A stretch of 64,000 nucleotides of DNA from Carcharhinus longimanus (taxonomy: Eukaryota): assembly GCA_030264375.1 (NCBI GenBank), contig JASCQW010000119.1, positions 8,796,506-8,860,505 on the forward strand. Direction: 5' to 3'. The position numbers and the translations under genes were made by a program. A model generated the notes under the pieces. That model did not search any database. It was not told the origin of the DNA and was given only the letters and a program-made list of their open reading frames with translations. This document shows, piece after piece, positions 2,234 through 63,431 of the stretch (within the stretch, counting starts at the first letter, position 1; every line of letters starts with the position of its first letter).

Positions 2234-2498
2234 TATGTTTCAGATCCCGATGCTGTGCATCCAAGGTGGCTGCTCCGACACGGCATCAGTATTAATACAA
2301 TGGGCCTGACCATCTATGGATGTCAATTGCTTTCATGTATGCTGTAATGATGCAATGAATGATTAAATTTCCCCACTCTGTCACCCGTCAGAGTCTGTAG
2401 ACAAATTAAGGAGCTATCTGTGTGTCAAAGCAAGCGAGGCTACAGAAAGTGAATCTCCAAAGAAATCAAATTGATCGTAGTTGTGCGCTGATTTTCAG

Positions 2499-2534
2499 AA
2501 ATAAAAGACCTTGAGGCTAAAGTTGAACGACTTG
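2499..2534 (+). CDS. Micro-exon 1 (36 nt): (E)IKDLEAKVERL
   Basis: attttcag|AAATAAAAGACCTTGAGGCTAAAGTTGAACGACTTG|gtgagc; phase 1-1. The first residue depends on the unseen upstream exon. Confidence 0.85.
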
Positions 2535-5500
2535 GTGAGCTTTTTCTTTCCAAAAAGAGGAATGCAGACGAAATTGGAGCAAAATTAAATTCCAGTGTAA
2601 AAATAACGTCAGTGAACACTTAATAACGGTTGACATGTTTTTGACTTGTATGTTTTAACACTTCTCTGAATAGATTTTGGAATTATGAAACCTGTTGATG
2701 AGCAAATAAGAATTTGATGGATGAGACAGAACATTTGTAAGAACGATTACAGTGGTGTTCTGGTGTGGTTCCATCGCCCACAAGAGCAAGCTGTAAGGAA
2801 ACGTTCAGCTTTGGATAAGGGTCAATGTGGAAAAATTGTGGGTTTAGCGGAGAATAAAGATTACTTTTTTAAAAAAACAATTTGCGGAATATGTGCAGAG
2901 GTGGCTAGGACAACATTCATTTTTCATAACTTGTTGCTCTTCAAAATGCGTTGGCGATCTGCCTTCTTGTGCTACTGCAGTCCCAGAGATGCCCTTAGTC
3001 TGGCGTTCCTGACGAAATTCCACATTTATGTTTTGCACCAATAGCACTGACAAAACTGTGATGTGTGTGTCACAGAGAATGGTTGTGTACGCGTTAAGAA
3101 ACCTTCAATTAGCTAACTGCACTGACGGTGAATCTTTCTCATTTTGGTCCATACTGCCTCAAGTACTCAATGGGAAATGTTCGCAATATTTTCTATCGAT
3201 GTAAAAAGATATGTGCAGTGCATTACCTCCCTTAGTACGGCCAGATACACGATATCATGCGCATATGTTGTACGTGCGTGATATCCAGACCTGTCACGTG
3301 AAAGATATGCGACCTGGATATGATTGAGCACACTACTATATTATAAGTCCATGGTATGTGCGACTTGCTGGATAGGCAGACATAAATACGCCGTCTTTCA
3401 ACTGAAATCGGAGTCACGGACATGACGAGAATTTCATTATTCATGTTTCAACCATGTAGTGAAATACCGCGGAGAAAACACTGAAGCAGCATACTCCTCG
3501 AATACGGCCCTGAGGCATGTTGCAGCAAACACTTGAAGTGCTATTCCAACAGACTGAATATAATTCCGGAAAATAAAGCACAACAGTAATATGTATTTTC
3601 ATTTGGCTAAACATACGGTCACATATCGGTTAATGATGTAATGGGAATTACTCCGAATCATAAACTATTCAAACGAAATTTTGATGAAACGGCATTTGTC
3701 TTTTTATCATTTTACGAATCTCCCCAAAACATATTTTGTGGAAGAGCTGTCCATTAGTGCACCCGTTGAAAATTCCAAATGTAGCCTCCAAGTCCTCCGA
3801 AATAATTAAACCATTGGCAAAATATACTTTGTTTTAAAGATTGCCCGAGATTTAATGACCCTTCCATGACGAAGTCAGCAATGCTCATTATATAAAATGC
3901 AATAATATCCCATATTGCATATTAAATTGTTTGCAATGCACTAATCGTTGATTTGTTCAGTATGTGCCCCACAATTCTACTAATAAATCAATAAATGTGG
4001 AAACGGTGAACATTGATTCTTGCAGAAGCTGATCTGGAGGAAAAAGCCAAAGGTAAAGCAGATAACTGAAATGAGAATCTATTATCTCAACGTTTCGAAA
4101 TTTTTGCAGCTTATATTGTTTGTGAATTGCACAGAGCGAATAATGTTCGCCTCAGAAGATATAGCCAGTAGAATGCCCATTTTATCTGCACGGAAACATT
4201 TTGGTACCTATTTTCTCTTCAGAGAACAGAGAAAACAAAGTCATACCACCTCGCCAATGTGTACAACAGAGTGAGATTATTTATTTTGAGATAAAGTGTT
4301 AAAATGTGATATAAAATGTGATAAATAATCTCTCAATGCAGATTGCAAAATAATGGAACAACTTTGGAAACGGAAGAAAGCTAATTAGCCCTTCTTCTTG
4401 GCCAGAACTATGCTTAGCTCTGGTGCAGAATTAAACACTGTTTATTTTGCATTTAGCAAGACTTCAATTTCGTCTTCCGTTTCATTCAGAGATACATTTC
4501 CCGTTGTCGGTCAAGCGAATTTGCATGCCCTGAGCACGTGCCTTGTTCTAAAAGAAAAGCCAGAGGCACCTGAAATGAACAGAGTAATAGAGGTTTGAAG
4601 TTTGAAAAAAAAACCTTTAACCCAATGTTTCCAATATGTCCATTTTAACCACTAAGATATTGGCTGCATTTGGTGCCTGTCCCTTTAATCCTAGTTTACC
4701 CGTATAACAGTTTAATTTGTTTTTAAGACAAAATCGTACCCGCCTCTATCACCTCCTCTGGCTGCTTGTTCCCGATACTTACCACCCTCGCTGTGCATAA
4801 AATAATCCTCTGGACCCTTTTGTAACTCACCGCTCTGAACTGTAACCTATGACCTCTATTTATCGTCTCCCCTAAATTTATTTTGACGATCGAGCTGATC
4901 TATGCAACTAATTATTTGACACGTCTCCATATCATCACCCTAAGTCCAACATTCCTGAGCCAGGGGTGGGGAGGGGTATCCCAGTCTAGCAGCCACTCCT
5001 TCTAACTCAAACAACAAACTTTCCATAGCTTCCTGATCTTGTTTTGCGGCACTCGTTCTAGTTTGATATATGCATATATGCGTGACGAGACGTGTATACA
5101 GTTTTCCAATTAGTGCCTTCTAAATGTCTTTAACAGCTTCAGCAAGACGTCCCAACTCATGTATTTAATGTTTGATCTAGTGAAACCAAGCATGCCACAT
5201 TCTTTTTTCACCACTTTGTCCACCTGTAACCCCACTTTCAAGGAGCTATGAACCTGCACTCATAAATCTCTTTGCTTTATAACTCTCTCCACCGCCCGAG
5301 CACTAACTGAATGAATCCTCCCCTGTTCAACCTATCAAAATGCATCAACAAATGTTTTATCTAATTAAACTCTATTTGCCATTCTTCAACCCACAGTCCC
5401 AACTGATCAAGATCCTTGCGATTTTGAATAATGCCTTGTATGTCACCAGTCTTGGGTATCGGATCTGCGGTGGATCAATGAGTAAAATAATTGGTTCTGC

Positions 5501-8500
5501 GTTAAACGTTCCTGCACAGTTTGCAACATCGTTTGACTGTCAAAAATGTTGCGTTCCAGATGTGACAAACACCTTAATTCCTTTCAACACAGGCACGCAG
5601 TAAACGGGAGAAACTCATCAACAACCATATCTGAAGTTTATTGTTCTCACACAAGTTTTCAATCTTTGACAATTGTCACGTGAACTGTTCCTTAAGATAT
5701 TTGCAGTTGAAGCAGAGAAAAATGTGCCTGCTGCAGCGCTTGATGTGTAAATAGCTATATAAATCCTGAAATGAAACCATTGTTTGGTTATTATTTGACA
5801 GCAATCATGCTGTCGTTGACATTTGCTTCGGTTTCAAACTGACAATCTGTCGGTTCTTTTACAAATATCCAAGAAACCGACAGGAAAGTGAAGGAACTGG
5901 GTGAGTAAAGTATTCAGAAACTGTTCATAACATTGCACATGTATACCCTTCAACTTTTTATTTGGGCATTTATGTGGTGGTTAACTGGCAGCGTGCCCTA
6001 TGTTAAAAAAAGAGTCCGCCACAACCCGGTCCAGGCCCTACCCCCATATCCCTACATGTTTACCCACTAAACCGTCTAACCTACACACCTCAGGACAGTA
6101 AGGAACAATTTTAGCATGGCCAATCGATCTAACCCGCATATGTTTGGACTGTGGGAGGAAACCGTCACACCCGGCGGAGACCCACGCAGACATGAGTAGA
6201 ATGTGCAAACTCCAAACAGACAGTGACCCAATCTGCCCACCCCCTTTATTTTGAGGCTTGATCGTATCTAACCCGCCAGTGCAAACAGCCTCGGTACTTC
6301 TTTTTTTCTCTCCTTCATATGTTTGTATGCCTGTATAAGATTGCTGCTAATTCATCCATTTTCGAGCCCACCATGGTCCGATTTTGGTCAGATCCGCCTC
6401 ATAAGCCAAACTTCCGAGTCCCAGAATCAACCTAGTGAGTCTCGGGTGAACCGTATCCAGAACCAGAACATCCTTCCTCAGGCCAGAAGAACAAAATTGT
6501 ATGCCATGGTTCAGATGTGGCCTCACTAGCACAGTATATAGCTTCCTTTCAATACTATTCCTCTGGCAATGGAAGACGGCATTCCAACTGCTCTCTTAAA
6601 TACCTGCCACACCTGCAAACCTAAATTTTGGCTTCAGGCTAGAGGTCCCACAGGTCCCTCTGCAGAGCAGCATGCTGTATTTCTTTACCGTTTAAATAGT
6701 CGTCAATGTTGCTTTTATTCCTACCAAACTGGGTGACTTCTCATTTGCCAACATTGTTCTTGATCTGCCAGACTCTTGCAATTCAATTCAATTGTTTATC
6801 TCCCTCTGCAAACTTTCAGCTTCCTCTGCACACTTCGCTCAACAAATCATGTTAATATCATCTGTCATCTTGGACACACTACTCTTGGTCCACAAATCCA
6901 AATAATCAATGTAAGTTGTAAACAATCGCGGACCCAGCATTGTTCCATGAGGTAAAAGTCGTTGCTCGTCAACTCGAAAATAAAACAACTATTTATCCCC
7001 TCTCTTTGCTTTCTGTTAGTTAACAAACCATCGAACAATGCTGAGACATTACGCATAACGCTCTGCAACTTTTTTTGGTAAGCAGCAGTTTTAGTGGAGC
7101 AACTTGTTGAATGCCATCTGGAAATCCACATCCACCCATTCTCCAGTGCTCCTCATGATCGTAATCATCCCAGTAAAAGATGTTAAACATGGCCTGTCTT
7201 TCCTGAATCCTTTGTCTGCCTAATAGAGCAATTTATATCTATATGTCTCTCTACCTTTTCCTTGATGATAGATTCAATCATTTTGCCAAATACTGAATTG
7301 AAACTATCTGGCCTATATTAAGTTGCATTTTGTTTACTTTTTTTTCTCAAACTGGCATTAAAATTACTGCTGCCGGATGTGCTGGAACTCCCCCACAGTA
7401 CAGTAAAGTTGTACAATACGACGACCATAATTGCTATATCCCCACAATCTATTTTATTGCCATGAAGTGCTTTCCATCAGGGCCAGGAAACGTTTTTACC
7501 TTTAGCCCGTTATATTGCCCAACATTTCCGCTTCCTTCAGAATGATCACTTCTATATCCGCATTATTGCCTACCTGTCATCATTTTTTTGGCATGTCATT
7601 TCTGTCTTCCTCTGCGAAGACTGAGACAATATATCTGTCCAAATCCTCGCACATTTTCCATTATTAAATCCCCCTTTACCTCTGCTAAAGTACCAATATT
7701 TATTGTAGCCACTCTTTCCCGTTTTATATCTTACGTACAACTTTGCTGTATTCTGAGCTTGTTCCCTCTCATAATCTGCCATATTTTGCTGATAGTTTTC
7801 TTCGTGCTTTTAGTCCACCTTTAAATTTTCCCCAATCCTCCAGTTACCTACTAGTCTTTTATTTTAATTTGTATGCATTCTCTTTCAATTTGATAACTTC
7901 CTTCATTTCCTTAGATATCCATGGCTAATTATTTCTTTTGCAAATTCCTTCCTTTTCACTGATATATGTTTTACTGAGCACTGCGAAACATCGATTTCAA
8001 AGTCCCCCACTGTTGTCTAATTGTCCCATCACGACGTTCTTGCTCCCCTGCAACCTTAGAACAGTGTCCCCTTATCCAATTGTAGTTTCCTTTGTTTAAA
8101 AATAATGAAATGTTATTGGCTTTTAATTTATCATGCTACATCTATATTTTAAATTAAATGAAAAGCGTCAGTCCCTAGGAGGGGATCCCTAACTGAGTGA
8201 TCATCAATTATTTTTATTTCATTACACAGGACCTGATTTTGGAGAGCGTGGTTCTTCTTAAACCCTACTACATGCCATTCAAGGGAACTATCGCAGAAAT
8301 ATTCCATGTTCACCTTCTCAAGACAGCCTTCATCAACCTGATTTGACCAAACCATATGTGAATTAAATATCACATGATAATTCATGTACTGTTTTTGCAT
8401 GCATCCGGTCTTTATTTGTTTATTACCCGCTCCAACATGATGTTATTATTTCGTGGCCCACAGACTAAGTTCATCAATAATTGTTTCATTCTTACTATTT

Positions 8501-11500
8501 CTGACATTCCCCAAAACAGAGTCATCTTTGTAACCAAAAAACCTATACCAACTCTTACCCTGGTTTTATCATTTAATATCAGAGTTGCACCAACTCTCTT
8601 ATCTTCGTAAATATCGTTCGAATACACTGATACCTCTCGATATTTAACGGTCAGGCAGACACCATGGAAGCATATCTCCGGAATGGACCTATATAGTATT
8701 CAACTGAGATGATCTGTGCCATCAATTAATTTACCTTGTTTCTACTGCTTCGAACATTAAGTTAAAACGCCCACACATTGTTTTTTACACCTTCGTTTTG
8801 AATCCCAATACTTCTATTAAGAAAATCTCCCGAGTTCTCCTCCAGTTAACTTTTATCCATTATTCTCCATTAGGTTGAAACCTCCTCAGTACATGATAAC
8901 GTGTTGCTGTTTTTCTCAGTACCATCGTATTTCGCGTAGTTTTACTATTCCTCCAGATGGGATCTAGATGGGAATTGGGAAGTGAGAGTGAGGCTGACGC
9001 TGCACAACTCTCCCTCACTTTAATCCAAATCAAGCGCTATTTTCGACACCATCGTAATCAGTGTCCTGTTCATCCCTTGAAGTCCTGTGCCGATGGGCAA
9101 GCGGCAAAGCAGCAGGTGTGAATACACTGGGTGCTGTAGTCACTGACCTGCACGCAGGCGGCTCAGGTCTAATGATTGTTTTCCGCTGACCGAAGCAGCA
9201 GTGGAATTCGGCGTCGACCTGGATGACTGAGCAGTCCTCTGCAGGAGCGCACTGNNNNNNNNNNNNNNNNNNNNNNNNNNNNNNNNNNNNNNNNNNNNNN
9301 NNNNNNNNNNNNNNNNNNNNNNNNNNNNNNNNNNNNNNNNNNNNNNNNNNNNNNAGTCATGCACCAGTCTGCTCCTCATGCACCGTACACAGAACCCATA
9401 ATCACAATCAAAGGGCAGAAGCTACACACAGTGGATCAGTTCACTTTTCTTGGCAGCATCCTCTCCCTAGCAGTGGCTATTTATTCAGAAGTTAACTGCA
9501 GACGGACCATGGCACTTTCTGCTTTTGGTAGACTGCACCCCACTGTATGGGAACGTCGAGGAATCAGCCCAGCAACAAAACTGAAGGTCTACAGCGCCGT
9601 GGTACTCACTACCCTTCCGTATGCCTGTGAAACGTGCAGAGTGTATGGAAGGCTTGCAAGACAGCTGAAACATTTCCGCATGACTCGTCTTCAGAGGCTA
9701 TTACGCATCAGATGTCAAGACGAAGTACCACACATTGAAGTTCTCTCTCGAGCAAGTCTACCATCAGTCCTCACACTGCTGATGAGAGCGCACACCCGGT
9801 GGGCAGGTCATGTCATCCGAATGTCAGACGAGCGCATACCCAAGCAGTTTCTTTTTGGGGAACCCTCTGCTGGAAGACACTCTCATGGACGACAGAAGAA
9901 ACGTTTCAAAGACTCCCTGAAGTCGCTTGACATTGACACGACAACCTGGGAAACGCTGGCACAAAACCGTCCAACCTGGCGCGACCTCATCTACAAAAGG
10001 CTGTCAAGCTTACGAAGCAAGATGTATTGCTGACGCACAACTTAAGGGCGAGCTGCGCAAGTCCAGAACCACCAGCGCATCAATTATAGTGTCTACACAA
10101 GTCTTTCCAATATGTGCCAGGACATTCCGTGCCCAATTTGGCCCGATCAGTTATTTTCGGACACACCACAACCAGCCAAAAAATAACGAATGGTGCCGAG
10201 GTCATCATCGATGACGATGGACGAACAACTAGTCCCCCACACACTTGAGAGTTTTGCACTGCTATAGTTAAATGTGGGATAGCCTAACCTGAGAATAAAG
10301 AGCACTCAATGACCACATTTCTACGCCTACCTTGTATTTATTTAGACACCGGAAGTCGATAAGTGTACATGAGATAGGTATTGTTATTTGAACTAAGCAT
10401 CAGCTCAAATCCCTGGACTCATTGTTCATTGACATTGCCAAACGCAATCATCCGCTCAACAATTTATGCACTTGTACGGTAATCTTTAAGAATGGCTTTA
10501 TTATTGTCAAATAACTTTGAGGTAAATTGTGTTTTCGTTGTGGATAATAATACATCCAATATGAAAGAAAACAGTTAACCGTTTTTGAGTAGCAATGCTC
10601 ACGTGAATGATGGGTATTTGTTTCAGAACATCTGTTTGTGGAGGATATGGTAATACCGGACATCATTAATTACGTGAAAAGAAATCATGAACATTTTGCG
10701 ATGAATGATAACATGATTTGCACCTCAGAGTTAGTAAAACGCTTTGTATTTTGTTAACCCGCTATGGAAATACGTGTCGCCCTTTCAGTTTAAGTTGCAA
10801 TTGAATTCTCATGAGTGTGCTTGAGGTTTATGCACATTAATATGCAGAATGGTGCGTATTTGCTGCACAATTCGATTACTTGTCTTCCATTCTGTGGCTC
10901 TGCGTACCCAGTGAATTCTTCAACCGGAATCCGACAACTCCTCTTAGGGTAACTTTCTGACGAAAAGTGGGTTGATGTTTTACCTAACTGTGGTTAAAGT
11001 CAGACCGTTTGGCATTGTTTACTGATTTCTTTTTTTTTGCTTCAGAATTTAAATTTCAACCTGCACCTTTTGGAGCGCGACATACTTGGACACTTTTATG
11101 ACTCGTGTGGTGCATGCTGCTGGTTATTTATTTGTATGATGCATACATTTTTTTTTATCATGACAGGTGCACATGCATTTTTTTTTCTGAAGTATGCCTG
11201 CCCAGGCAATGCAATTTTAGTTGTGTTACTTCACTCCCTTTCCCTCTAAATTGACAGTGTTATGCCTGCTTATTTGTAGGTGATATGGTTTGTTTTATTT
11301 TCTACATGCTTATGCATATTCCATGTGCTTGATCTAATTCACAGAAAAGACTTATTTGGGTAAGCATATTTGTTTGCTGAGTATTTACATTGCTTTCCAC
11401 GAGAAAGATGCACGTTAGCGACATTGGAGCCAGGGGCCCAGCCGATTGTGTTACTCTTTGAAGGCAGACTTCATCAGTTTAGCATTACCAATTCCTGCCT

Positions 11501-25962: not shown

Positions 25963-25998
<36 letters not shown>

Positions 25999-26694
25999 GT
26001 GCTGGTAATAACCTGTCAGCTGACAAGCATTGTGTGAATTCTCAACAACACATTCAAGGTTGATTGGTGATTTCCCTGGCATAGCGATTACTCCAAAATC
26101 CTGTGTTAATTTGGAAACGACACAATTTAAAGTCTCGTCCATCCAGTCCCCCCACCCTTCGCCACAACCCTCCACCTCAACGGCACGAGCGCGATGTAGA
26201 TTGATATTAAATTTTCTTTTGCAGAAGGATGGACCCTGCTCATTGCAGAAGGAAGAAGGATAAACGTATGCGTACCTTGAGTAATTAGGTTGTGGAAGAC
26301 TAACGTCACGCTATTACTATATGTTTCATTTCAGCAATACACTTTTCCCCGATCAAGTGATTGCGTGTTCCAGATAAATAGTCACCTTTATTTGTCCTAC
26401 TGAGTAAAAGTCTTTCAAATAATAACAACTGTTTCATTATCAATGATTAACTTCGTCTACACACGCATTTTAATTATCCACCATTTCTCAAATTCACAGA
26501 GAATCTAAAGAATGGTAAGTGAATGCTTGATACAGAACATTGATTGCAAAAATGCATATAGATGATCACATTTGAGAGAAAAAAAACATTGCGTTAACTA
26601 ATGAATTCATTTGAATGGCCTTCAACATTGCAAACGGACAAAATCACAGGTAAAATTCCATGACGAGAGGTGCATGAGTAGGTACACGTGTGTG

Positions 26695-26725
<31 letters not shown>

Positions 26726-32229: not shown

Positions 32230-32267
<38 letters not shown>

Positions 32268-50200: not shown

Positions 50201-53200
50201 TCTAATGGCCCAATATGTGGCAACGTAAAACTAAGTGCTAATGGGCATTTCAAAACTTGAGATCAAATTTCGCTTACCATTCGTCGATGGTACGTTGTTT
50301 CCGGAGCGAATTTAACTGTGCAGAACTATTATCTCTTTGTGTTGCGAAGGGTGCAACTGCTCAAAATATAAATTTGTTGGCAGGATTAATGTAACAGTTC
50401 TTATCAATCCAATATCAAAACTAATTACTTTTTTGCCAAGTTGCACTGAGTTCGAATTACATGAAATGAAACAAAATAATTAAAGTTCATTAACCATAAT
50501 CTGCAGAACGGGCAAAATTCATCAGTCGTCCTTGCAGGCTGTTCCCAAGACTCGATTCTTCGCGCTGCAATGGAATTGAATAGCGGGCCAAATGTCGATC
50601 TGGACTACTTAAGAAAAAAAAAATGCCTAATGTGAACAGAGATGAGATAGAATTTTGGAATTCTAACGAATGCAGCACATTTTGTACAGATTTTGTACAG
50701 ATTGTACAGGTAAATCATGTCCCTATTTGGTCCGAGGGATATCTCATCTGGTCCCTTTGCTCATCACTTTTTTTACTTCTTCTTCAGATACTTATATGCC
50801 ATTTCGTAAAGCTGTTAACCTCCATTGCTTTGGGAGGCAATGCACTCCAGATCCTAATGTGATGACTTAAGTTTTTCTTTCACATGTTCTTACTCATTAA
50901 TTCAGTTGAACACTTCAAAAACGTGTTCTTTCGATTTTTTTTTCGCAATGAAACACTCTACACGGTACTGACACTTTGAACACCTACCTCGTATCTTTCA
51001 TCTCCTTGTTGGAGACGTGGGCCTTGTACTAATATCGCCTGATGTGCAAAGTAGAAGACCCATGAGCGAGCCCAGATTGAACGACGTGCCTTTCGGGCGG
51101 GCAAGAAGAACTCGTGCATATCATCCTTTCTGAGCGTATTCTTTGCTACTGATGCTCGACGTCAACACATGGTCCATTTCACAACAAGTGTTTTTTTTTA
51201 ATGCATTTCTTGCACATACTTTGATGTATTCTATGTTATGTACAGCACATTTCAGTTCACTTTTGTTTGTTAAATATTTTGACTTCCAAACAGAAGACAA
51301 ACTAAAGGATAAAAAGAGAGGTAGCGTTTTTTTTTGCCTATTCAATGCAAATTGAGCACGTGATCGTTGTTTGCGTATTTGCCAAAGAATGCACTTGTTG
51401 CAGTATCTTTCAAAACATAGGGCAAAACTTTCAAAAGTTTTGGCCGAAAATAAAGTTGTTGTTAGCAGGTAGTATGACAAATTAGGTTCCCCTTAACATT
51501 ATACTGAAGAAAAGAAATGTTCTGCATGGAAAAAAAAACAAACGATCAAAGTGGCATATGCATTATCAAATTTTAAACAGCGGCGAATGGTTTGGTGAGA
51601 ATGCAGTCTTAAATGCCGCAAAGGTTACGTCAAATGGAGTGAGACATTGATAAAAAATGAAATATATTCCGGACAGTGGAAATGATGTTGAGCATTGCAC
51701 GCATTCCAAGCCAACGTTAAGAGTTGCATTCGTGTTTAAGATGTGCCTGATCAAATGCATATTCTGCAAAAGACGAACTTGGGATTTTGGCTTGCAACTG
51801 ACAGACCTTTTTTTGTTCATTTCTAAAACAACCAATACCTTCTGCAACACGCAATTGTTTTTGAAAATAAGTATAATTCCAGTAGTCACAAGGAAGTAAT
51901 GGTTATCAGTTCAAGTTATCTCATTTGCAATTACCTTGCGGCCTACTCACCATAGCTCCGGCTACCGTTGGATAATATGTAATAGAATCGGGAACAGTGA
52001 GAAAAATACTTTCCAACTTCCTCGACATGTGTTGGTTCAGGAGGGGGCGATTTCGATGTCAATTCAGACGGCTTTATTTGCGCATAATCGAGGGCTCAAA
52101 TATAAACGTGCCCAGTAAAACATTGCTCCGTTATACACCCAGTCCAGCCACCCATGTCAGTACTGTCTCTCATGTACAAAGTCCCATAAACATTCCCTTT
52201 AAGTATCCTTGCCCAACATGTTCTCAAACGACAACATTAACAAACGGAAGAACAAACGTTGGGGGCACACGGAAACTACCACCAACGATTTAATCTAATA
52301 ATCAGATTTCGTCATGGTTTTGAAATGCTTCACATTGCGTGCCAGAGTTAGGAAGTCATGTTGCAGCTGTATAACAACTTGGTGAAGCCATATTTTGCGT
52401 ATTGTATGCAGTTCTGCCCGCCATGATACCAGAATGGCATGCAACATTTGGTAACAGTGTGGACAGATTTTTCTTTTCAATGGGTGGAATTGTCAATTAG
52501 AAGGATGCACAGTTTCAGCGTGAGAGTTCAACTATTAAGGGAAATGTGCGGGGGACTTCGTTTTTTTTTACGGAGAGCGCGGTGGGTGCCCAGAACGTTT
52601 TGTCAAATGAGGTTTTGAATGACAGCATTTTGTCACATTTAAGTGACATCTAGATGACTGCATGGATAGGGACAGAATAGAGTGTTACATGTCGAGTACG
52701 GAAAGAGATGTTTTTTTTTCAGGTTTAGTACGAGCATCATGATTGGCTCGTGCTTGGAGGGCCCAGGGCCTGCCTGTCTGTGTTTTACTTGTTCTTCTTT
52801 CCTTGCTCATGTCGTAAATGTTCCAACTGTAGCTCATCGTAAAATCAGTTACATTGTTATGCCAAAGCAGATCAGTAACAGTGGTTGGAATATAATGCAT
52901 ATGACAATTGTGACTGGACAATAATTTCTGATGTTGTCTGCACTTGAACATCACGTGGGCAATTCAGTATTTGATGTTTACAATCATAAAAGTCATGCAA
53001 ATTACACAAAAACGTACCAGTTGGATCCAACGGTTATTTTCCATGTTCGAATTAAATTCGAATTTAAGTTTGAAACACGAATTGAAATGGTCTGCTGATT
53101 GTCATTTTGTTGTATTCATTACCTTGATCTATGCACTGGTAGAACTGTATTCATAATCGCTCATGATTCTTTCAATTGTCTCTCTATAACTTAGTTTAAA

Positions 53201-56200
53201 CCCAGACAAATTAAAAGTTTAAATCAGTAATGAAATGCAGCTGACCAACACTTCTGAAGTAAGGGTTTAGGACCCAATCTTAACAGAAGTCCACTAATTG
53301 TGTTAGTTAACACATTGAATTGAATTCCAGATATATGTATATTACAAACAAATGAATATTTTACATCAAGTAGATCGGCAACTTACGAAACATTATTATT
53401 GAAAACATATACATGGTTGCACAAAAGTTAATCGATTTGAACTTCTTGATGTGTGCAAATATGAAAACGCCAGAAGTGCAATTTTTCAGCCTAACTGTGC
53501 AATTGCAGACAAATTTCCGGAGGAATGAAGTTATAACACAGGGGAATGATTTGTGCATCAGTGTGTTTCTGAACTGTAAAATACATTTTGTCAAGAGATA
53601 AGGTAATAGAATGAGTTCTATGAAGTATACAAGATTAGATTAATTCTTTGATTTAATTAAACAGAACTGTTGCCAGTTTCTAGGAAGCAATAGGGTCACA
53701 TCCGATGGACGTTGCTGAACAAACATTCTGTAACTTCTCAACTGTTTCCGCTAGTAAATCTGAGGCAAATTTGCTATATATGAGGTTGCAAAACGCAACT
53801 TTCAGGACGCATGTGCATTCTTCAGCTCAATGCCTCAGCCAATCAGATATAGCCAGGCTGGGGCAAATTTAATTAAACACGAGCAATCAAAGTTATTTTA
53901 GACCACCGCCCTAGACACATCCTCATAGAACTCCAGTAAATTTGTCAGACACGACTTCCCTTTAACGAAACCATGCTGCNNNNNNNNNNNNNNNNNNNNN
54001 NNNNNNNNNNNNNNNNNNNNNNNNNNNNNNNNNNNNNNNNNNNNNNNNNNNNNNNNNNNNNNNNNNNNNNNNNNNNNNNCATGATCTTATTGAATGGCGA
54101 GGCAGGCTCGAAGGGCTAGATGGCCTACTCCTGCTCCTATTTCTTATGTTCTTATGCTCTTATTTCCGCTGGCAGTTCATTCGCCTGCGAATCAATTTGC
54201 AGTGTCTTCTCATTTGGCCCAACTTTTAAATTAACTTTCAAAGTCAAATGTTAATTTACTTTCCTGGTATTGCAGAAATGATTGCAAAACATGTTTCATT
54301 TAAACATTTCAAATTTCATTTGTAACATTGCTGCGAAATATATCCAGTACTGCGCTGAGGAAAACGTTCTGTCGTTAATGGAAATGGATAGCACAAGCTC
54401 ATCCCAAGAAAAGCGAGCGCAATAAAAATGTAAGGAAAATGATTTGATGTTGTTGCATAATTAAATTGTGTGACCATATATGACGAGGTATAAATGGATT
54501 GCAAGCCCGGGTGTCGATCTTTTCTTTTACTGTGTGATAATTCAGTTAAATTTGGGGCATTCATTTCGAGAGACCGACATTTTCAAAATGACACTAACAT
54601 ACGTTCAATGATTTTGAATTTTTACAGAACTGTTTGATTGCCAAGAATCATTAAAGCAACTAGGTGCGCCTTGTGTCATATTTACGTTTGTAATATGTTA
54701 TTTCCAGAAAGGCAGAAACAGCAATTTTTCATCACACAATAAAATTACCAAAAATGTTTTTGTGTTTGCGTGGCACAATATGTTGAAAATCCATGTTGAC
54801 TATCGAAAAACAAATAACTGCCAGCAGCTCTATTTCGTATTTGTCAGTTGTCCACGAGCTGAAACATAATCAAGGCCAATATACGTTTTCCAACAATGCC
54901 AGTCTAGTGAAAAATGGCAAAAGTAGTTGGCCGAGTACACTTCCCGAAATGTACTCCATGCAATTATAAACGTACTGTGGAAATGCGTCATGAGAAATGC
55001 CTGGAAATTGTTCTGTTGTTAAAACAGTGCATGACGCATTCAGTTGCATATGTTCCCAAGAGCTCTTAGCCTCTGTCACGATTGGCGCAAAGATCAAATT
55101 GGACCTTGTACTTTTTGAGTCAAATCCCCAAGAACAAACCAATTATGAAATAATGAACCTATTGTGAAGGAAAACCGGAGCTCAATCAACGTGGAAGATA
55201 TGCAGGACGCAGTGAGACTCTGGTCGGGAAAGGTGTGCGATGGAGTGGGGTGGGGTAGGTTAAGATAATGTTTCCTAAGGAAGAATCCCAGGTTCATATT
55301 TTGGGTAGTAATATATGGAAATCACGCTGATGCCGCCCGTGGAAATTAAGTACAATTATCCGCCAAATAAATGGAAAATCAGATTCGCCACAATAGGAGT
55401 GACAATGGAAATTTTAGACCTTGCCCTTGCATCCTGTCTAGCTCCAAAATGTCACAGCGGTAAATAACTCAGACACATTTGCTTTGTTTAGACTTCATTT
55501 AATTCCCTTAACAAAACAATCTTCGCTGTTCTATGAAATGATCTAGCAAAGCATTCACTGAATGTACAATTACAGGTGTGGAAATGATGGCCTCGCTCAT
55601 GACGCCCAGAACACCAGACAGAGCAAAAATAACTGCAATACACATGTTTTTTGTAATGTGCATCAGGAAGTTTATTTGCAATTCAGAAATACAAGTTATT
55701 GCCTTCAGTTGCAAACTAGTTTAAAGCCATGAACTGCCCCGAAGCTGTGAGCAGGGTTAAACGGCAACTGCAATTGATTTGAGATGACAAAATGTCATTT
55801 TGCTCACTTGAACGTAACAGAAGGCTTAAATGTAATGTGACAGACAAGAACATAAAAGCTGAACAAGTATTGCGTTATGCTGAACATTCAGGATTATATT
55901 TCAGCGTAATTTTAAAGTAATTTATTTTGCAAAGTCGCCCAGTGAGAATAGTTTGTGCAACGCTGACAAGGACATCTGAGTCTAGAATTATTGAACAGTA
56001 CATTCGAGCAAGCCGGGGTTGGGGCGGTGCGGGGTTGGAGATCCGTTGTCCCTGGGTTAATGTCTCGACAGTGTAGCCCATTTATCTTCACACACAATGT
56101 CCGTTTAGTTGTTACAATGAAATGCATTCCAACGCGTTTAGTCTTTATGGAATGCCATTTTGAAACTGGCGAATGCCCTCCATATGTGTGGCGGTTTACA

Positions 56201-59200
56201 TCGGAGCATTTTTCATCCCAAGAAACGTTTAATGACCGCTCTGCTTAATTAAGTAATCTTTTGCTTCATGTTCTTAATGTCCAACGGCCCGGCGTGTGCA
56301 GTTAATGTTTTCCATAACCAAGCAATTCAATATGGCAGTTCTTTTTTTAACATTAACAAACATTATGATCCATTGCCGGATCTAGCAAACCGATACACTG
56401 ACGGCTCCCCCCCCCCTCCCCCCCACACACACACACAAATCAGACAGACTTTCCTCAAAAATTCAACGCGCAGTTTGATTTCCGCTGTTGTACCGTTGAT
56501 ATGAGCTTAAGAATAAGAACATAATCGTTGTGGACTAAAAACAAAACAAAATATGAAACATCAGATTAACTAGATAGTTCTTGCTGATAGTCTGCATTGA
56601 CATAATGTGTGGCAGATGATCATATAATTTGTATGTTACCACTATCTTATATTTTTGATTGCAGCTATTTGAAGGAGAATTGCATTTTTATCCACAGATC
56701 AAAATTATGATAAAATGTTCAACATTCATTTGGATGGAAAGTCCTCTCAAGAAAAAAACATGTTTTTTTAACGTCGATATTACTCATAATATTTGCTGTA
56801 GCTTTTGAATACATCGAGCTTACGGATGTTTCGGAGGTGAATGGTTGTGTCATTTTTCTCTTCAAGATATTATATCGCTTTTCAACCTATGGAACACAGT
56901 TGAAATTCTAAATAAATATCTGGATCACAAAAAAGGCCGATGAGCCTCAAAAGCAACACAGCACAGATAGATCCAAGATTTGAGTGTAGGGACCATCTTA
57001 ATTACAAAACTGCGCACATTGATACATCTTTCTAAATATTTGAATGCATATTTCGTTTGCGCCGAATTGTCTTTTAGCCTGACTTCTCATACCACACATC
57101 ATTAGTTTAATTATTTTTTTTTCTTAATAGAATATCAACTAGGTGGAAAGGAAAAAGGTACTGGCTTTCATTATTCGCTGCTTAAAAGACATAAATATAT
57201 GACACTCCTCATTTATGGATTTTAATTGTCATGCAATTTCCTCCTCGACGGCAAAATAACAATTCTGCTAAGTTTCTAATCATGTAGACCTTTTATTTCT
57301 CCGATACTGGGAACAATTTGGATTTTAATGTAATGGCCATGAAATCACTTGAGCTAGCCTTTTTGGAGGGAAACCTGAAAATAGGAAAGCGACCGTTTCA
57401 AGAATTTAATTATTCCGAAATCTGCTGGAATGTCAGTAAAATATCAAAACAAAAAAAAAAACAATCTGCTTTACTCATTTGCAGTTGGAAAAAAAAAACA
57501 ACGTTTATCATTTGCTTAATCTCTGTGTCACTCCAAACAGGCCGAACATTTTAGCTATTAGTTGTGTCGCATTTGATCATTCTGAAGTTTCCACCAGCTT
57601 TCTGCAGACAATAATGTGTTGACAAATGATCTTCCGATTTATTTTGATCAAGATATTCGTTGGTTTGAAAAGCAATACCGCCTTCATGAAAAATTTGGTA
57701 CACAATTTTCAGTGTGATACAATAACAATTAAAGACAGAAAATGTCGCATTCGGCAGTGGACAAACAAAACACATCACATTCTGCAAATTTTATGACATT
57801 TATGCAGGTACTCCATTGAGCAGGGATCCCCTNNNNNNNNNNTGTTTTTTACTTTCTGTTACTATATTGTTTGAACTGCCAGTGTTGATTCGACGGGATT
57901 AACAACTGCAATCAGAGAACGGCCCATTACATGACCTAGTTGGACGCATATGGATCCAAAAATGGACATTTCAAATCGCTTTCACTTTAATTTTGAATAA
58001 CCAGCTTTGATAAAATCCAAATCCGTAACCGTTTCCGGAAGACTTGATTTTGAAATTGCCATTGTAACAGGTGTTTTTTTTTCCCACAATGTTTTGAATG
58101 AATGACGTGAACGGTCCGTCCATGCATTAAAAACAGTGGCATTCAATCTACCTCAGTAGCTAAGTTGTGTGATCGTTGAGAGAGACGTAGCGAGTCAGAC
58201 AGAACTATCAAGTGGCTTACTTGGACAAAATACGGCTCACTGCAGCTGTGTTTGTTCTGTCAAGTCTAAATGTAATGATGAATGCATACAAAATAGTTGA
58301 ATTCCTAAATTGTGTTGACTTTATTTCCTGTCCTTGAAAGACGATGATGAGACGATGGTCTAGTGGCATTAACATTCAACGACTAATCCAGACAATGTCT
58401 GGGAACCGGGGTTCAAATCCAGCCATGGCAGATGGTGGAATTTGAATTTTAAAAAATCTGTAAACCTGGGTCAACAATGTCATTTAGGGAAGGAAATCGT
58501 TTGTCCTTACCTGGGTTGGCCTACGTGTGACTCTAGAGCCACCGCAATTTGTTGATACTTAACTGCCATTTGAAGTGACTGACCAAGTCACTGGGTTGGA
58601 ACAATCGGTAGAAAAAAAAACAACAAAGAAATAAAACTGGACCCCCACCACCTGTTATCAATCTAGGCAGCAGAAAAGACAAGAGCAAAACAGACAGGCC
58701 TGTCGACCCTGCAAAGTCATCCTTGCTAGCATATTGGCGCCAGTGCCAAAATTGGGAGAGCTGCCTCAGAGTTTAATCAAGCAACAGCTTGACGTGACCA
58801 TTCTCACGGGATCATACCTTGCAGAAAACAGTCCAGACACCAGCATTGCCATCCCTGGATATGTTCCACTCCATGTCACGATAGGCCCAGCAGAACTGGA
58901 GGAATGGTGATATACAATCAGTCGTGAGTGTCCCTTGGGGTCCTTAACATTGACAGCGGACCCCATTAAGTCTCGTGGTTTCAGTTTGCACACGAACAAG
59001 GAAACCCCTTCATAGTTACCACATGCCTCCATACTTCGGGTGCATAAATACGTGTCCCCCTATGTTGAATAACACTCGGAGGAAGCATTAAGCTTGGCAC
59101 GGGTGTAAAAATCACAATGGATGAGGCATTCCAATGTCCACCACAAAGCGTGGCTCGGCAGCTGGTCGGGGCTTGGAGGATATAAATGAGAAAGTGGGCC

Positions 59201-62200: not shown

Positions 62201-63431
62201 TCTGGCCACTAAGTTCACATTGATCCTTACCACAAATTTCCCTCGGGTCACTAAAACAAATTAAAACTTGATCCCGCATCGGTGATTGCATCCGAACCAT
62301 CAGGACAGTGTATAAGCCCTTTCATCAAGTTGCCCTGAGTGCTCCACCACTACAAACACTACCAATAAAACGTGTTTCATTCTTCCGTTAGAATGCGGTT
62401 CCATCCGAACGTCCTTTGCAATCACACACCACGGAAATCTGTCATAGGCAACAAAAAAAAAGCAATTCTACAAAACATTGATAAAGTAGCTTAACTATTT
62501 CCAAAATGTTGACCCATATATATTTTAAATCATCATCGTACGTTTAAACTTCTTATTGTTTTTAATATGTGGCAGATGTCTCACTCCTTTGCTTATGTAT
62601 ATGATTTAACCACATTTATCGTGATGCTAGACATTTTGCCAACGCCTTCAAAATCAAAGGATTGGACATCTTCACCAACCTATTAAGATTATATCCTCCA
62701 AGCTATTCCAGGACATGTTAGCATTAAAATTTCTAGAGATTACATGAAAACAAAAGCTGAACAGAATCCAGTCCTGTGCACAACAGTAACTTGCAATACC
62801 CATGTAGAAAAATTGCCAGAACATAGTCATTCTGAAAAGGTGAAAACCTCAGAATCCTGCTAAAATTTCAATTATTGGACAAAGTTTGGCATCTCAGAAC
62901 TTGCATCCTGTGGAACAATTTGGAAAATAAAGCTACAGTGAAATGACAGAGGATGTGAATTATTCAGCTCGTAAATGAACATCATGCCTCAATGCACAAT
63001 TTCCAGGTTCACTTGCGTAGTTTTGTGAAGTTCCAAAAACTGTCAAAAAAATAAATATATATATATATATATCTTGCGTAGTCCATTGACTCAGTCACAG
63101 ATGCACGAACGTTGAAAGATGTATTGCATGTCGTCGCCATTGCAGGTGCAGAGCAAACTTAGTTCCAAAGTACAATATATTTCCCACGAGATTCTCATTT
63201 TGGTTGAGGAATTCAGTTGGATTAGATATATTTTATTCAGTGAAAATCATCTGCTTGAATGCACTTCCAGAAATTTACAATCAGATATTCTCCAACTCTT
63301 TTGCGGATCTGCCGACAAAATTACCGAGAAATTTCAGTGGTGCTCCAGTTATAAAATCCTAACTTGCAGAAACATGTTTTCCCCTGTTCTTTTTTTCTGC
63401 ATAGACATTGAATCCCTTAACAAAAAATGGA
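2499..63431 (+). CDS. Partial multi-exon gene: 21 phase-1 micro-exons (36/27/15 nt) encoding a ~204-aa coiled-coil segment; identity unknown, 5' and 3' ends not seen
   Basis: Each exon has an AG acceptor (one exception, at 5865) and a GT donor, a length divisible by 3 and the same phase. Joined translation has no stop: (E)IKDLEAKVERL-EADLEEKAK-DIQETDRKVKEL-EKTYL-DMKTCEVSLNQL-EEKLKANEK-ELSECEDALKDF-QNLKN-ELSSRLQTENDT-KEKLNTTEK-ELEKCKEALKKS-EKNAANKDK-ELDELEQKC-REETDEKNL-VLQDLNNTQEEL-EKLKR-DLTYCLEDVKKL-EDKLKDKKR-ELFDCQESLKQL-EYQLGGKEK-DIESLNKKW. Confidence 0.85.
4026..4052 (+). CDS. Micro-exon 2 (27 nt): EADLEEKAK
   Basis: ttcttgcag|AAGCTGATCTGGAGGAAAAAGCCAAAG|gtaaag. Confidence 0.85.
4680..5460 (-). 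mobile_element. CR1-clade LINE 3' fragment, degenerate
   Basis: Reverse-strand sequence resembles the RT C-terminus and 3' region of the better-preserved CR1 copies at 18873-19760 and 39085-40450. Confidence 0.65.
5865..5900 (+). CDS. Micro-exon 3 (36-nt class): DIQETDRKVKEL; the acceptor reads AA, with an in-frame alternative AG 9 nt downstream
   Basis: ggttcttttacaa|ATATCCAAGAAACCGACAGGAAAGTGAAGGAACTGG|gtgagt. Consensus donor; same length and heptad pattern as the other 36-nt exons. Confidence 0.65.
6040..6232 (-). mobile_element. V-SINE/HE1-like SINE
   Basis: tttggactgtgggaggaaaccg...acccacgcagacatg...aatgtgcaaactcca is the reverse complement of the V-domain core; related copies occur elsewhere in the window. 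Confidence 0.75.
6340..8760 (-). mobile_element. Long degenerate CR1 LINE (RT and upstream ORF2 region)
   Basis: ORF 6347-6532(-) LVRPHLNHGIQFCS...RKDVLVL and ORF 6865-7131(-) ...LTNRKQREGINS carry CR1 ORF2 motifs; many stops and frameshifts. Confidence 0.7.
8960..10230 (+). mobile_element. RTE-clade (BovB-like) LINE fragment spanning an N gap
   Basis: ORF 9359-10033 has TKLKVYSAVVLTTLPYACET...RWAGHVIRMSDERIPKQFLFGE...GRQKKRFKDSLK. A frameshifted C-terminal zinc-finger remnant (FPICARTFRAQFGPISYFRTH) follows. Confidence 0.9.
11345..11359 (+). CDS. Micro-exon 4 (15 nt): EKTYL
   Basis: ctaattcacag|AAAAGACTTATTTGG|gtaagc. Shares the acceptor 9-mer aattcacag with the 15-nt exon at 26500. Confidence 0.7.
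11975..12272 (-). mobile_element. V-SINE/HE1-like SINE
   Basis: Similar to 6040-6232 (gtgcaaactccac core), with a tRNA-like head end (caccgtgctgcc) near 12270. Confidence 0.7.
12300..12990 (-). mobile_element. Gypsy-like pol (RNase H) remnant
   Basis: Minus-strand translation near 12870-12950 reads STVEAVHGDNQFLKGLSFQISTDHAL, resembling the Ty3/Gypsy RNase H motif AIVxAVxxxxxYLxGxxFxxxTDHxxL. Confidence 0.45.
14615..14830 (-). mobile_element. V-SINE/HE1-like SINE, diverged
   Basis: gactgtgggaggcaatcggagcaccc core; tail shared with the 11975 and 33985 copies. Confidence 0.65.
15150..16250 (-). mobile_element. CR1 LINE 3' fragment, degenerate
   Basis: ORF 15254-15451(-) ends KGVLDEHMHIQRIEGYGP, the CR1 ORF2 C-terminus also seen in other copies here. 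Confidence 0.65.
16480..17430 (-). mobile_element. Rex1/Babar-like LINE fragment
   Basis: Minus strand reads FMFSDATTVVG...EIDNL...DYNLSLNVK, matching the KFADDTTVVG...NNLxLNVxKTKE motif of Rex1/Babar reverse transcriptase. Confidence 0.6.
18820..19760 (-). mobile_element. CR1 LINE RT fragment, relatively young
   Basis: ORFs 19485-19667 (DVMYMDFSKAFDKVPH) and 18873-19481 (SKFVDDTK...WQMEFNPDKCEVMHFG...RDLGVQ...VRPHL). Confidence 0.92.
19770..20430 (+). mobile_element. CR1 LINE 3' fragment, highly degenerate
   Basis: gtgagaccagaactggagcattgtgtgcaattctg (VRPxLExCVQF) followed by 3'-end-like sequence. Confidence 0.55.
20574..20609 (+). CDS. Micro-exon 5 (36 nt): DMKTCEVSLNQL
   Basis: gaattgtag|ATATGAAGACATGCGAAGTATCACTGAACCAGTTAG|gtgaga. 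Confidence 0.85.
21047..21073 (+). CDS. Micro-exon 6 (27 nt): EEKLKANEK
   Basis: ctgcaatag|AGGAAAAACTCAAAGCAAACGAAAAAG|gtaatt. Confidence 0.85.
21981..22035 (+). repeat. (CA)n microsatellite, imperfect
   Basis: Direct reading. Confidence 0.95.
22180..23385 (+). mobile_element. CR1 LINE, internally deleted
   Basis: MGEILNEYVASAF; KKAQDMLAFIGRG; LEGVQKR..FTRML; TQRVVRAY...GIEGY. The core RT segment is missing near 22730. Confidence 0.8.
24015..24050 (+). CDS. Micro-exon 7 (36 nt): ELSECEDALKDF
   Basis: ctacactgcag|AACTAAGCGAATGCGAAGACGCCTTGAAAGATTTTC|gtgaga. Confidence 0.85.
24850..25620 (+). mobile_element. CR1 LINE 3' fragments around an N gap
   Basis: FFTQNLVSLWNSL...HLDSYM...IEGYGP; ELKRGIRKAKRGHEMALAGRIKE; a 3' tail with (tgttctt)n after the gap. 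Confidence 0.8.
25936..25999 (+). repeat. Compound (CAA)n/(TAA)n microsatellite
   Basis: Direct reading. Confidence 0.95.
26500..26514 (+). CDS. Micro-exon 8 (15 nt): QNLKN
   Basis: ctcaaattcacag|AGAATCTAAAGAATG|gtaagt. Confidence 0.8.
26687..26725 (+). repeat. (GT)n microsatellite
   Basis: Direct reading. Confidence 0.95.
27750..29700 (+). mobile_element. Possible ancient Gypsy-like internal region
   Basis: Scattered motif remnants: KRFCL...HSHPLP near 28575-28640 (cf. RFCxDYxxLNxxTxxDxYPLP) and LHCKPAHLAIERT near 29150-29190 (cf. integrase HxxxGHxGxxxT). Very degraded. Confidence 0.35.
29868..29903 (+). CDS. Micro-exon 9 (36 nt): ELSSRLQTENDT
   Basis: ccgtattacag|AACTAAGCAGTCGCCTCCAAACGGAAAATGATACAA|gtaagc. 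Starts AACTAAGC like exon 7, and has CGC at the position where paralogous exons have TGC. Confidence 0.8.
30897..30923 (+). CDS. Micro-exon 10 (27 nt): KEKLNTTEK
   Basis: ttctttaacag|AAGAGAAACTCAATACAACGGAAAAAG|gtaact; clearly paralogous to exon 6. Confidence 0.85.
31635..31670 (+). CDS. Micro-exon 11 (36 nt): ELEKCKEALKKS
   Basis: gtgtctttcag|AACTGGAAAAATGCAAAGAGGCTTTAAAGAAATCAG|gttgat. Confidence 0.8.
32233..32270 (+). repeat. (GT)n microsatellite abutting an N gap
   Basis: Direct reading. Confidence 0.95.
33037..33063 (+). CDS. Micro-exon 12 (27 nt): EKNAANKDK
   Basis: aattcttcag|AGAAAAATGCTGCAAATAAGGATAAAG|gtatct. Confidence 0.8.
33285..33980 (-). mobile_element. CR1 LINE 3' fragment, degenerate
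   Basis: Reverse complement resembles the 3' end of the 39085-40450 copy. Confidence 0.55.
33985..34295 (+). mobile_element. V-SINE/HE1-like SINE
   Basis: tRNA-like head with B-box ggttcgattcc near 34040, V-domain (ctgcgtggttttcttccgggcg), and the tail shared with the other copies. Confidence 0.75.
35030..35780 (-). mobile_element. CR1 LINE 3' fragment, degenerate
   Basis: ttccacaacttccactggcagc...aatactccaaatgtggc matches the CR1 3' region on the minus strand. Confidence 0.55.
36680..37280 (+). mobile_element. Ancient CR1 RT fragment
   Basis: ttacaaagtgacata...caatggtcaaaaatgttccaa...tataat (LQxDIxxLxxWxxxWQxxFN remnant) and a gttaagacct (VRP-like) remnant. Confidence 0.45.
37690..37935 (+). 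mobile_element. Rex1/Babar-like LINE 3' end
   Basis: TNRLKNIFFTAAVRFLN C-terminal motif followed by a 3' UTR ending acaataataaataaaatcaaa. Confidence 0.6.
38100..38126 (+). CDS. Micro-exon 13 (27 nt): ELDELEQKC
   Basis: atatttttcag|AGTTGGATGAACTGGAGCAGAAGTGCA|gtaagt. Confidence 0.85.
39085..40450 (+). mobile_element. CR1 LINE RT and 3' end, 5'-truncated, broken ORF2
   Basis: ORFs 39087, 39403 and 39932 give VDVVILDFHKMFDKVPH, GSVLGPQLFTIYIDNL, NFANDTK, WQMEYNVHKCEV and RRNFFSQRVLNPWNSL; the tail reads ttatgttcttatg. Confidence 0.93.
41039..41065 (+). CDS. Micro-exon 14 (27 nt): REETDEKNL
   Basis: ttctttttctttcag|GAGAAGAAACCGACGAAAAGAACTTGG|gtaagc. Confidence 0.85.
41285..41430 (+). mobile_element. 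CR1 3' UTR fragment
   Basis: agccatgatcttgttcaatggcggggcaggctcgaagggctagatggcc...(ttatgttc)n; similar to 40370-40450 and 54080-54160. Confidence 0.8.
42256..42291 (+). CDS. Micro-exon 15 (36 nt): VLQDLNNTQEEL
   Basis: gaattttcag|TACTCCAAGACCTCAACAATACTCAGGAAGAATTGG|gtgaga. Confidence 0.85.
45710..46150 (-). mobile_element. CR1 LINE 3' fragment
   Basis: caggcccttcgg...ctacttctccaggcagcgacttccaggcacacatcactctc, typical of the CR1 3' region on the minus strand. Confidence 0.55.
49279..49293 (+). CDS. Micro-exon 16 (15 nt): EKLKR
   Basis: tctcattgcag|AAAAACTAAAGAGAG|gtaggt. Confidence 0.8.
50126..50161 (+). CDS. Micro-exon 17 (36 nt): DLTYCLEDVKKL
   Basis: ataccattgcag|ATCTCACATATTGCTTGGAAGATGTTAAAAAATTAG|gtggga. 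Confidence 0.85.
   Translation: MSHIAWKMLKN
51294..51320 (+). CDS. Micro-exon 18 (27 nt): EDKLKDKKR
   Basis: cttccaaacag|AAGACAAACTAAAGGATAAAAAGAGAG|gtagcg. Confidence 0.8.
52330..52800 (+). mobile_element. CR1 LINE 3' fragment
   Basis: gtcatgttgcagctgtataacaacttggtgaagccata (VMLQLYxxLVxP) through the 3' UTR ttggagggcccagggcctg. Confidence 0.65.
53900..54163. mobile_element. CR1 pieces flanking an N gap: minus-strand RT piece on the left, plus-strand 3' tail on the right
   Basis: gacacgacttccctttaacgaaaccatgctg is the reverse complement of QHGFVKGKSC; catgatcttattgaatggcg...(cttatgtt)n is the 3' tail. Confidence 0.75.
54628..54663 (+). CDS. Micro-exon 19 (36 nt): ELFDCQESLKQL
   Basis: aatttttacag|AACTGTTTGATTGCCAAGAATCATTAAAGCAACTAG|gtgcgc. 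Confidence 0.85.
57131..57157 (+). CDS. Micro-exon 20 (27 nt): EYQLGGKEK
   Basis: tttttcttaatag|AATATCAACTAGGTGGAAAGGAAAAAG|gtactg. Confidence 0.8.
58350..61432 (+). mobile_element. Near full-length degenerate CR1/L2-group LINE (APE + RT) with a tRNA-like Pol III 5' head
   Basis: A-box tggtctagtgg (58356-58366) and B-box ggttcaaatcc (58410-58420). APE N-terminus PKLGEL...KQQLDVTILTGSYL...IPGY near 58740-58865. RT LLSDAQFGF...AFNRVWHQG (ORF 60118-60588). A-rich tail ending at 61432. Confidence 0.8.
61700..63050 (-). mobile_element. Possible ancient Gypsy-like integrase/pol remnant
   Basis: Only weak, broken motif resemblance on the minus strand; not verifiable by eye. Confidence 0.25.
63405..63431 (+). 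CDS. Micro-exon 21 (27 nt): DIESLNKKW
   Basis: tttttttctgcatag|ACATTGAATCCCTTAACAAAAAATGGA|gtaagt. Counterpart of exon 13 (ends TGGA vs TGCA, same gtaagt donor). Confidence 0.85.

Follow-up and report, generated by a model that had tools for sequence, protein, structure and literature searches.

A micro-exon array with a terminal B30.2 exon predicts a giant coiled-coil gene of a cartilaginous-fish family in Carcharhinus longimanus

Guinea pig enterophilin-1 is reportedly a soluble protein with a long leucine zipper and a B30.2 domain. It is listed as binding sorting nexin 1 (SNX1) in a review table (PMC13749957). In butyrophilin genes, a B30.2 exon comes after a series of short exons that each encode a heptad (PMC6790196, PMC4046983, PMC12841164). 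The long coiled coil of chicken BG is built from many tiny, alternatively spliced exons, and a soluble, tail-only form, the BG zipper protein, controls actin-myosin in gut cells (PMC4046983).

Here, we analyzed a window of 64,000 nucleotides from the Carcharhinus longimanus assembly (contig JASCQW010000119.1, hereafter C119; genome size 2.68 Gb), in which an initial annotation had proposed a hidden gene of phase-1 micro-exons. Coordinates outside 1-64000 extend the window numbering, and positions on C119 equal 8,796,505 plus the coordinate. We read the window as the middle of a ~420-kb gene for a predicted soluble, cytoplasmic coiled-coil rod of ~850 residues that is tipped by a B30.2 domain and would serve as a spacer or tether, and assign this reading a probability of about 0.58.

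The micro-exon array of the window

The exon list was rebuilt from scans for AG...GT exons, which gave a plus-strand series of 36, 27 and 15 nt. It comprised 21 micro-exons between 2499 and 63431, nine of 36 nt, nine of 27 nt and three of 15 nt (Table 1). When joined, they amounted to 612 nt or 1.0% of the span, and the phase-1 frame was free of stops vs. 16 and 15 stops in the other two frames, which reproduced the number, lengths, open frame and coding fraction given in the initial annotation. AG...GT ends were present on 20 of the 21 exons. The remaining one is likely either skipped or used as a 27-nt in-frame exon starting from a weak AG at 5874; a public DNA contig that is identical over 2400-6000, and that is possibly the source of the assembly, carried the same letters at the AA acceptor. 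Contigs from four sequencing runs were DNA-like and had no splice joints, and they carry no information on expression.

Table 1. Micro-exons of the window and their coordinates.
Feature	Position	Strand	Length (nt)	Remarks
Micro-exon, first in window	2499..2534	+	36	phase 1-1; array goes on upstream
Micro-exon	4026..4052	+	27	
Micro-exon	5865..5900	+	36	AA in place of AG acceptor
Micro-exon	11345..11359	+	15	
Micro-exon	20574..20609	+	36	score 7.8, just below threshold 8
Micro-exon	21047..21073	+	27	
Micro-exon	24015..24050	+	36	
Micro-exon	26500..26514	+	15	
Micro-exon	29868..29903	+	36	
Micro-exon	30897..30923	+	27	
Micro-exon	31635..31670	+	36	
Micro-exon	33037..33063	+	27	
Micro-exon	38100..38126	+	27	
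Micro-exon	41039..41065	+	27	nested in-frame acceptors 41042, 41045
Micro-exon	42256..42291	+	36	
Micro-exon	49279..49293	+	15	
Micro-exon	50126..50161	+	36	
Micro-exon	51294..51320	+	27	
Micro-exon	54628..54663	+	36	
Micro-exon	57131..57157	+	27	
Micro-exon, last in window	63405..63431	+	27	splice sites good, profile score low (3.9)

The micro-exon array is real and lies far above chance. A splice-plus-profile model was trained exclusively on 54 exons of paralogous genes, chosen by a composition-based scan, which avoids circularity. At a threshold of 8 this model recovered 18 of the 21 window exons and no further site on the plus strand, and nothing on the minus strand; the exons starting at 20574 and 63405 scored too low, and the one at 5865 was missed for its absent AG. 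Markov-resampled windows gave 0.13 matches per window (30 resamples, maximum 1). Over the region from -267 to +222 kb, the model returned 79 exons on the plus and 5 on the minus strand at threshold 8, and 58 and 0, respectively, at threshold 12. A splice-site-only scan, which has no coding term and uses generic splice-site frequencies, was run over the whole gene. On the plus strand it yielded 267 candidates, of which 28 were 27 nt and another 28 were 36 nt long, with a mean of 4.4 candidates (maximum 10) for other lengths, and on the minus strand 4 and 9 among 241. Phase-1 stops were present in 1 of the 28 candidates of 27 nt and 4 of the 28 of 36 nt, compared to 11 and 14, and 20 and 14, for the other phases. 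The signal was weaker for the window alone (5 and 8 of 54 candidates on the plus strand, 1 and 4 of 49 on the minus strand).

The AA acceptor and an exon-like stretch near +190,650 with non-canonical ends could be taken as signs of a decaying or silent gene whose exons are remnants. We consider this highly improbable: the terminal B30.2 exon is complete and free of interruptions, a search of the whole span for high-scoring exons that carry a stop or a broken site turned up one, and variation is greatest at third codon positions, with identities of 0.30-0.34 vs. 0.50-0.57 at second positions. The loss of single symmetric exons would, moreover, leave the frame intact.

Fragments of non-LTR retroelements were observed in the window introns at 39075-40462, 18873-19484 (minus strand), 60100-60588 and 9356-10033, and four window ORFs matched RVT_1, one of them above the cut-off. 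A short minus-strand ORF at 65-322 resembles a Harbinger/PIF transposase by its motif and is a putative fragment of one. Near-identical repeats at 13767-14066 and 37410-37587 flank N gaps and are likely assembly overlaps.

Extent of the gene, its terminal exon and its 5' region

The array was not confined to 2499..63431, the 61 kb to which the gene had initially been assigned, and continued on both sides to a gene span ~7 times that of the window. Its limits were ~-197,764 (C119:8,598,741), ~198 kb upstream of the window, and +216,933. It was followed by an intact terminal B30.2 (PRY-SPRY) exon at +221,694 (C119:9,018,199), 158 kb downstream of the window, with a strong phase-1 acceptor, 173 codons and a stop. 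The gene thus delimited measures ~420 kb and has ~80-86 predicted micro-exons encoding a rod of ~850 residues, and the window represents about one seventh of it. The catalogue in which GC donors were allowed held 86 exons and 846 residues, a few of the exons being likely false; its introns had a median length of 2.9 kb and a maximum of 23 kb, and 0.7% of the sequence was coding. Further exons may be hidden in 41 kb of N.

The terminal exon was identified as SPRY by Pfam (PF00622, E 4e-11, above the cut-off). In a search of solved structures with the B30.2 domain BTN3A1 was the closest match (E 1e-31), and TRIM21 was found at 2e-25. The AlphaFold model of the exon was weak (pLDDT 55), and an ESM Atlas search returned generic SPRY clusters. 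The B30.2 exon is preceded by a Trp-bearing 9-residue exon, which in a ray relative aligned with the same stretch of BTN3A1; TRIM58 also aligned over the Trp exon. This exon was sought in four paralogs and was not found there. Both the gene end and the closest structure bear out the suggested butyrophilin/BG precedent, and the B30.2 exon was among the features for which inspection of the flanks had been advised. The proposed analogy to CD23 and C-type lectins does not hold, as the terminal exon encodes B30.2; a motif scan for a lectin-like exon detected none.

To the 5' side, Pfam searches for Ig, RING and B-box domains found none in 107 (the longer ones) of the 220 ORFs upstream of the array gene, nor in 61-62 (the longer ones) of the 153 ORFs upstream of a family member on contig C81, where the last exon of a ZIP transporter (PF02535, minus strand, C81 ~94.368 Mb) bounds the search 26 kb upstream. 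Ig- and RING-bearing queries, 41 of them RING-bearing, gave no match at four 5' regions, a single match at E 0.006 corresponding to neither domain. No fitting transmembrane exon was present among the 22, 14 and 26 candidates of three 5' regions, where one hydrophobic match was the ZIP transporter exon, and a search of the 5' regions for signal-peptide exons gave no convincing one. Comparison of two paralogous 5' regions revealed repeats only and no common coding exon. The array gene has two candidate starts, a myristoylation-like one at -198,931 and a short one at the donor at -198,094, neither of which is common to the paralogs. Searches of the genome with an IgC family of butyrophilin type and with an IgV query located such exons on C81 and elsewhere, whereas C119 6.3-11.3 Mb yielded none when each of the 57 and 77 candidates was scored; in a V-set family search, 150 of 928 candidates were scored. 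Several V-set Ig exons were observed at C119 1.15-3.63 Mb, 3-5 Mb from the cluster.

Assembly gaps occurred in every 5' region, with 1461 N in 11 gaps for the array gene and, for the upstream paralog, 1226 N ~3 kb ahead of its first exon. Exons for Ig, transmembrane, RING or B-box parts are apparently absent upstream of the array gene in the assembled sequence between gaps. Among the flanking features initially listed for inspection, B30.2 was found, and signal-peptide, transmembrane, Ig and C-type lectin exons were not found in the sequence between gaps. The gaps would allow for a true membrane protein of butyrophilin or BG type with a giant cytoplasmic tail, whose Ig and transmembrane exons are hidden in them or are too divergent; the rank of BTN3A1 among the solved B30.2 structures and the BG-type 21-nt exons of the upstream paralog (see below) are consistent with such a protein. 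It is nevertheless unlikely, given that four separate 5' regions were devoid of these exons in assembled sequence, that the canonical IgV and IgC exons map outside the C119 cluster, and that Pfam assigned SPRY/PRY to seven relatives from chondrichthyans and detected neither Ig nor RING nor B-box in them.

A gene family of cartilaginous fishes

Six related B30.2 exons are located on C119 6.3-11.3 Mb, and five paralogs lie within 5 Mb. Micro-exons faced their B30.2 exons in the sampled stretches of the paralogs, and in one sampling matches occurred in 12 of 20 10-kb stretches. The B30.2 exons at C119 6.33, 8.53 and 9.02 Mb and at 9.09, 10.68 and 11.29 Mb display the same layout twice, a minus-strand gene followed by two plus-strand tandem genes. 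The upstream paralog (C119:7,310,447-8,529,180) extends over ~1.2 Mb and would rank among the longest micro-exon genes. It has 21-nt single-heptad exons at 7.40-7.69 Mb and 36/27-nt exons thereafter; at 7.30-7.55 Mb, 13 of 27 plus-strand matches were 21 nt long. The array of another paralog contains, at C119:10,826,146-10,829,261, consecutive phase-1 exons of 21-27 nt in which Gly, Pro and aromatic residues are abundant and which are predicted to form a non-helical insert in the rod. At C81 85-102 Mb, numerous B30.2 exons are clustered together with IgV and IgC exons of butyrophilin type, and two members of the micro-exon clade are located within this cluster.

The tandem arrangement raises the question of whether the block that contains the window merely extends the 1.2-Mb gene upstream at its 3' end as an alternative, reached by splicing past the first B30.2 exon to give a longer rod with another head. 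Both blocks are on the same strand, all exons are in phase 1, a second tandem pair of this layout is located at 10.68/11.29 Mb, and no 5' coding exon or CpG island was detected in the 70 kb that separate the array from the upstream B30.2 exon. However, the exon-free gaps of 55-70 kb far exceed the introns of the array, two other members have no recognizable 5' exon and yet no array directly upstream of them, and in-frame ATG candidates directly precede the first exon, which makes an extension quite unlikely.

In a B30.2 tree, the family formed a long-branch clade of its own with 24 rows and a support of 100/100, to which this genome contributed 8 genes and the databases 16 proteins. The tree had 64 rows and a midpoint root, 30 of the 40 outside rows being random nameless matches, and no mammalian butyrophilin rows; TRIM rows and a salmon protein fell outside the clade. 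Thirteen of the 16 database members were named and were all from sharks, rays or a chimaera, one clustered with a skate protein, and two were unnamed. These database relatives are mostly short fragments called TRIM39-like, A33-like or butyrophilin-like. The initial annotation had anticipated a lineage-restricted and un- or mis-annotated coiled-coil gene, and both points are in line with the clade. The family is present in databases as misnamed fragments because a coding content of 1% in exons of 15-36 nt defeats gene finders. The B30.2 domain of the reverse-strand paralog was 76% identical to a catshark protein, and peptides of catshark models matched single micro-exons of two paralogs in this genome, showing conservation of family exons across species via paralogs only.

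The only long model found among the database relatives was Callorhinchus milii XP_042192744.1 (1697 aa, "nuclear-pore anchor-like"). The profiles of the 12- and 9-residue exons tiled this protein with a z of 10.8, compared to 3.1 and 4.2 in a coiled coil from salmon. The proposed split module of 12 + 9 residues was thus recovered in the array as well as in the chimaera protein. The N-terminus of the latter gave no match in the ESM Atlas. Searches for full-length relatives returned none or one clade member, a weak negative, as the same searches missed known members, and none of the database proteins found covers the exons of the window. No description of a cartilaginous-fish family of micro-exon B30.2 genes was found in the literature searched, most subscription papers being outside its coverage. 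One "A33-like" protein, a possible member of the clade, is listed in shark skin mucus (PMC10707392).

Heptad register, proposed function and comparison with known systems

The 12-residue exons (n = 32) had hydrophobic fractions of 0.72, 0.94, 0.91 and 0.50 at positions 2, 5, 9 and 12, and the 9-residue exons (n = 41) of 0.71 at position 4, the last d position being mostly Lys. The pattern initially described for the window, with hydrophobic residues at 2/5/9/12/16, was seen in 9, 7, 7 and 7 of the nine 36-nt exons and, for position 16, at position 4 of five of the nine 27-nt exons. A 36+27-nt pair encodes 21 residues, or three heptads, and is register-neutral; the phase is displaced by 3 residues in a 36+15 pair and by 4 in a 27+27 pair, and the two displacements offset each other when such pairs are adjacent. 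The chain of the window peaked at a period of 3.5 residues, a value that was reached by none of 2000 residue shuffles and none of 2000 exon-order shuffles. Exon order, besides exon content, therefore carries the heptad register. In the whole catalogue, spacings between 12-residue modules were multiples of 7 in 6 of 19 cases, in part due to missed exons, and Fourier analysis of residues 270-890 of the chimaera model gave no 3.5 peak, likely as a result of phase breaks.

Skipping of one exon keeps the reading frame and moves the heptad register by 2 or 5. The earlier idea that rod length is tuned by free skipping is weakened in this respect, and free combinatorial skipping is doubtful because exon order maintains the heptad phase. 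Some skipping probably occurs in the family, as the members of NCBI isoform pairs of relatives are distinguished by blocks of 9 residues in five instances and of 6, 7 or 18 residues in others. Isoform models at NCBI generally rest on RNA reads.

The first d position was Cys in 10 of the 32 twelve-residue modules. Such core cysteines could be cross-linked in a secreted or extracellular structural rod, if a short signal-peptide exon had been overlooked, and a protein of this kind may exist in Salmo salar, where XP_045550229.1 (2294 aa) has B30.2, a long coiled coil and a start that resembles a signal peptide; hydrophobic stretches are also present at the start of the skate and chimaera models. 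Secretion of the rod is very unlikely, however. The salmon B30.2 falls outside the clade and its coiled coil fits the 12/9 module poorly, so that it is possibly a convergent secreted design, the hydrophobic starts look like read-through of T-rich acceptors, and no convincing signal-peptide exon emerged from the search.

For the favored cytoplasmic rod, all micro-exons and the B30.2 exon would be joined in one transcript. By analogy with butyrophilin and BG tails, the chains would dimerize in parallel, with Leu/Ile at a and Leu/Cys at d, although g-e' salt-bridge pairing for parallel chains was not above the control (13 attractive, 9 repulsive, p 0.34). A coiled coil rises by 0.15 nm per residue, and the dimer would be a rod of ~125 nm. 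Its paired B30.2 heads might bind a partner protein, which the rod would hold away from an anchor such as the cytoskeleton or a membrane compartment; this spacer or tether role in the cytoplasm is suggested by analogy with the BG-derived zipper protein and enterophilin-1. A cytoplasmic tail of butyrophilin type may have given rise to the family, its symmetric exons being duplicated repeatedly and the Ig and membrane parts lost. The B30.2 tree, which has no mammalian butyrophilin, is compatible with a butyrophilin or a TRIM origin, and TRIM58 also aligns over the Trp exon.

A broader reading, which we regard as doubtful, is that of a cartilaginous-fish family more than 400 My old, made up of receptor-less, butyrophilin-tail-like giants (0.07-1.2 Mb, up to hundreds of micro-exons, in a ~5-Mb cluster) that encode intracellular rods, whose length would be set by register-aware 12+9 splicing and whose B30.2 head may be swapped across tandem blocks. 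If true, this would be a splice-programmed molecular ruler that annotation has almost wholly missed.

Apart from this broader reading, the array gene exposes a multi-megabase family found throughout cartilaginous fishes and present in databases as fragments under wrong names. Heptad exons of butyrophilin/BG design are thereby seen in the oldest lineage of jawed vertebrates as well, in a form that apparently has no receptor part, which bears on the origin of B30.2 immune and trafficking proteins. The gene also offers a natural test of whether the splicing of symmetric micro-exons is limited by coiled-coil register or by reading frame alone.

Like the butyrophilins BTN3A1, the best solved match, and BTN2A1, the array gene has a C-terminal B30.2 exon after short heptad exons. 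It differs from butyrophilins, which have a few such exons, in its ~80-86 micro-exons and its 36/27/15-nt modules, in having no IgV, IgC or transmembrane exon in the sequence between gaps, and in the separate clade of its B30.2 domain. With chicken BG it shares a long coiled coil of many tiny exons, and the upstream paralog has the 21-nt exons; in the array gene itself, only 2 of 86 catalogue matches are 21 nt long. BG genes have signal, IgV and transmembrane exons, 7- and 8-residue exons and a 3' UTR end exon, whereas the array gene has 12-, 9- and 5-residue exons, ends in B30.2, spans hundreds of kb and revealed no Ig or transmembrane exon between gaps. Enterophilin-1 appears to be the closest architectural analogue and is likely convergent. 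TRIM/C-IV proteins (TRIM39, TRIM69, A33) also combine a coiled coil with B30.2, and relatives of the array gene carry these names in databases, but no RING or B-box was found here, the rod is many times longer and coded by micro-exons, and TRIM rows lie outside the clade. The chimaera protein XP_042192744.1 belongs to the same clade and has the same 12/9 module; it is an automatic prediction with an uninformative name, related to the array gene at the level of the clade. In CD23 and other type II C-type lectins the stalk is followed by a lectin domain, and here by B30.2. By the N-terminal features in its assembled sequence the array gene falls outside the butyrophilins, BG and TRIM proteins, and it is outright distinct from the C-type lectins. 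Its component parts are already known; what is new is the scale, the split of the module into 12+9 residues and the fact that a receptor part is apparently absent.
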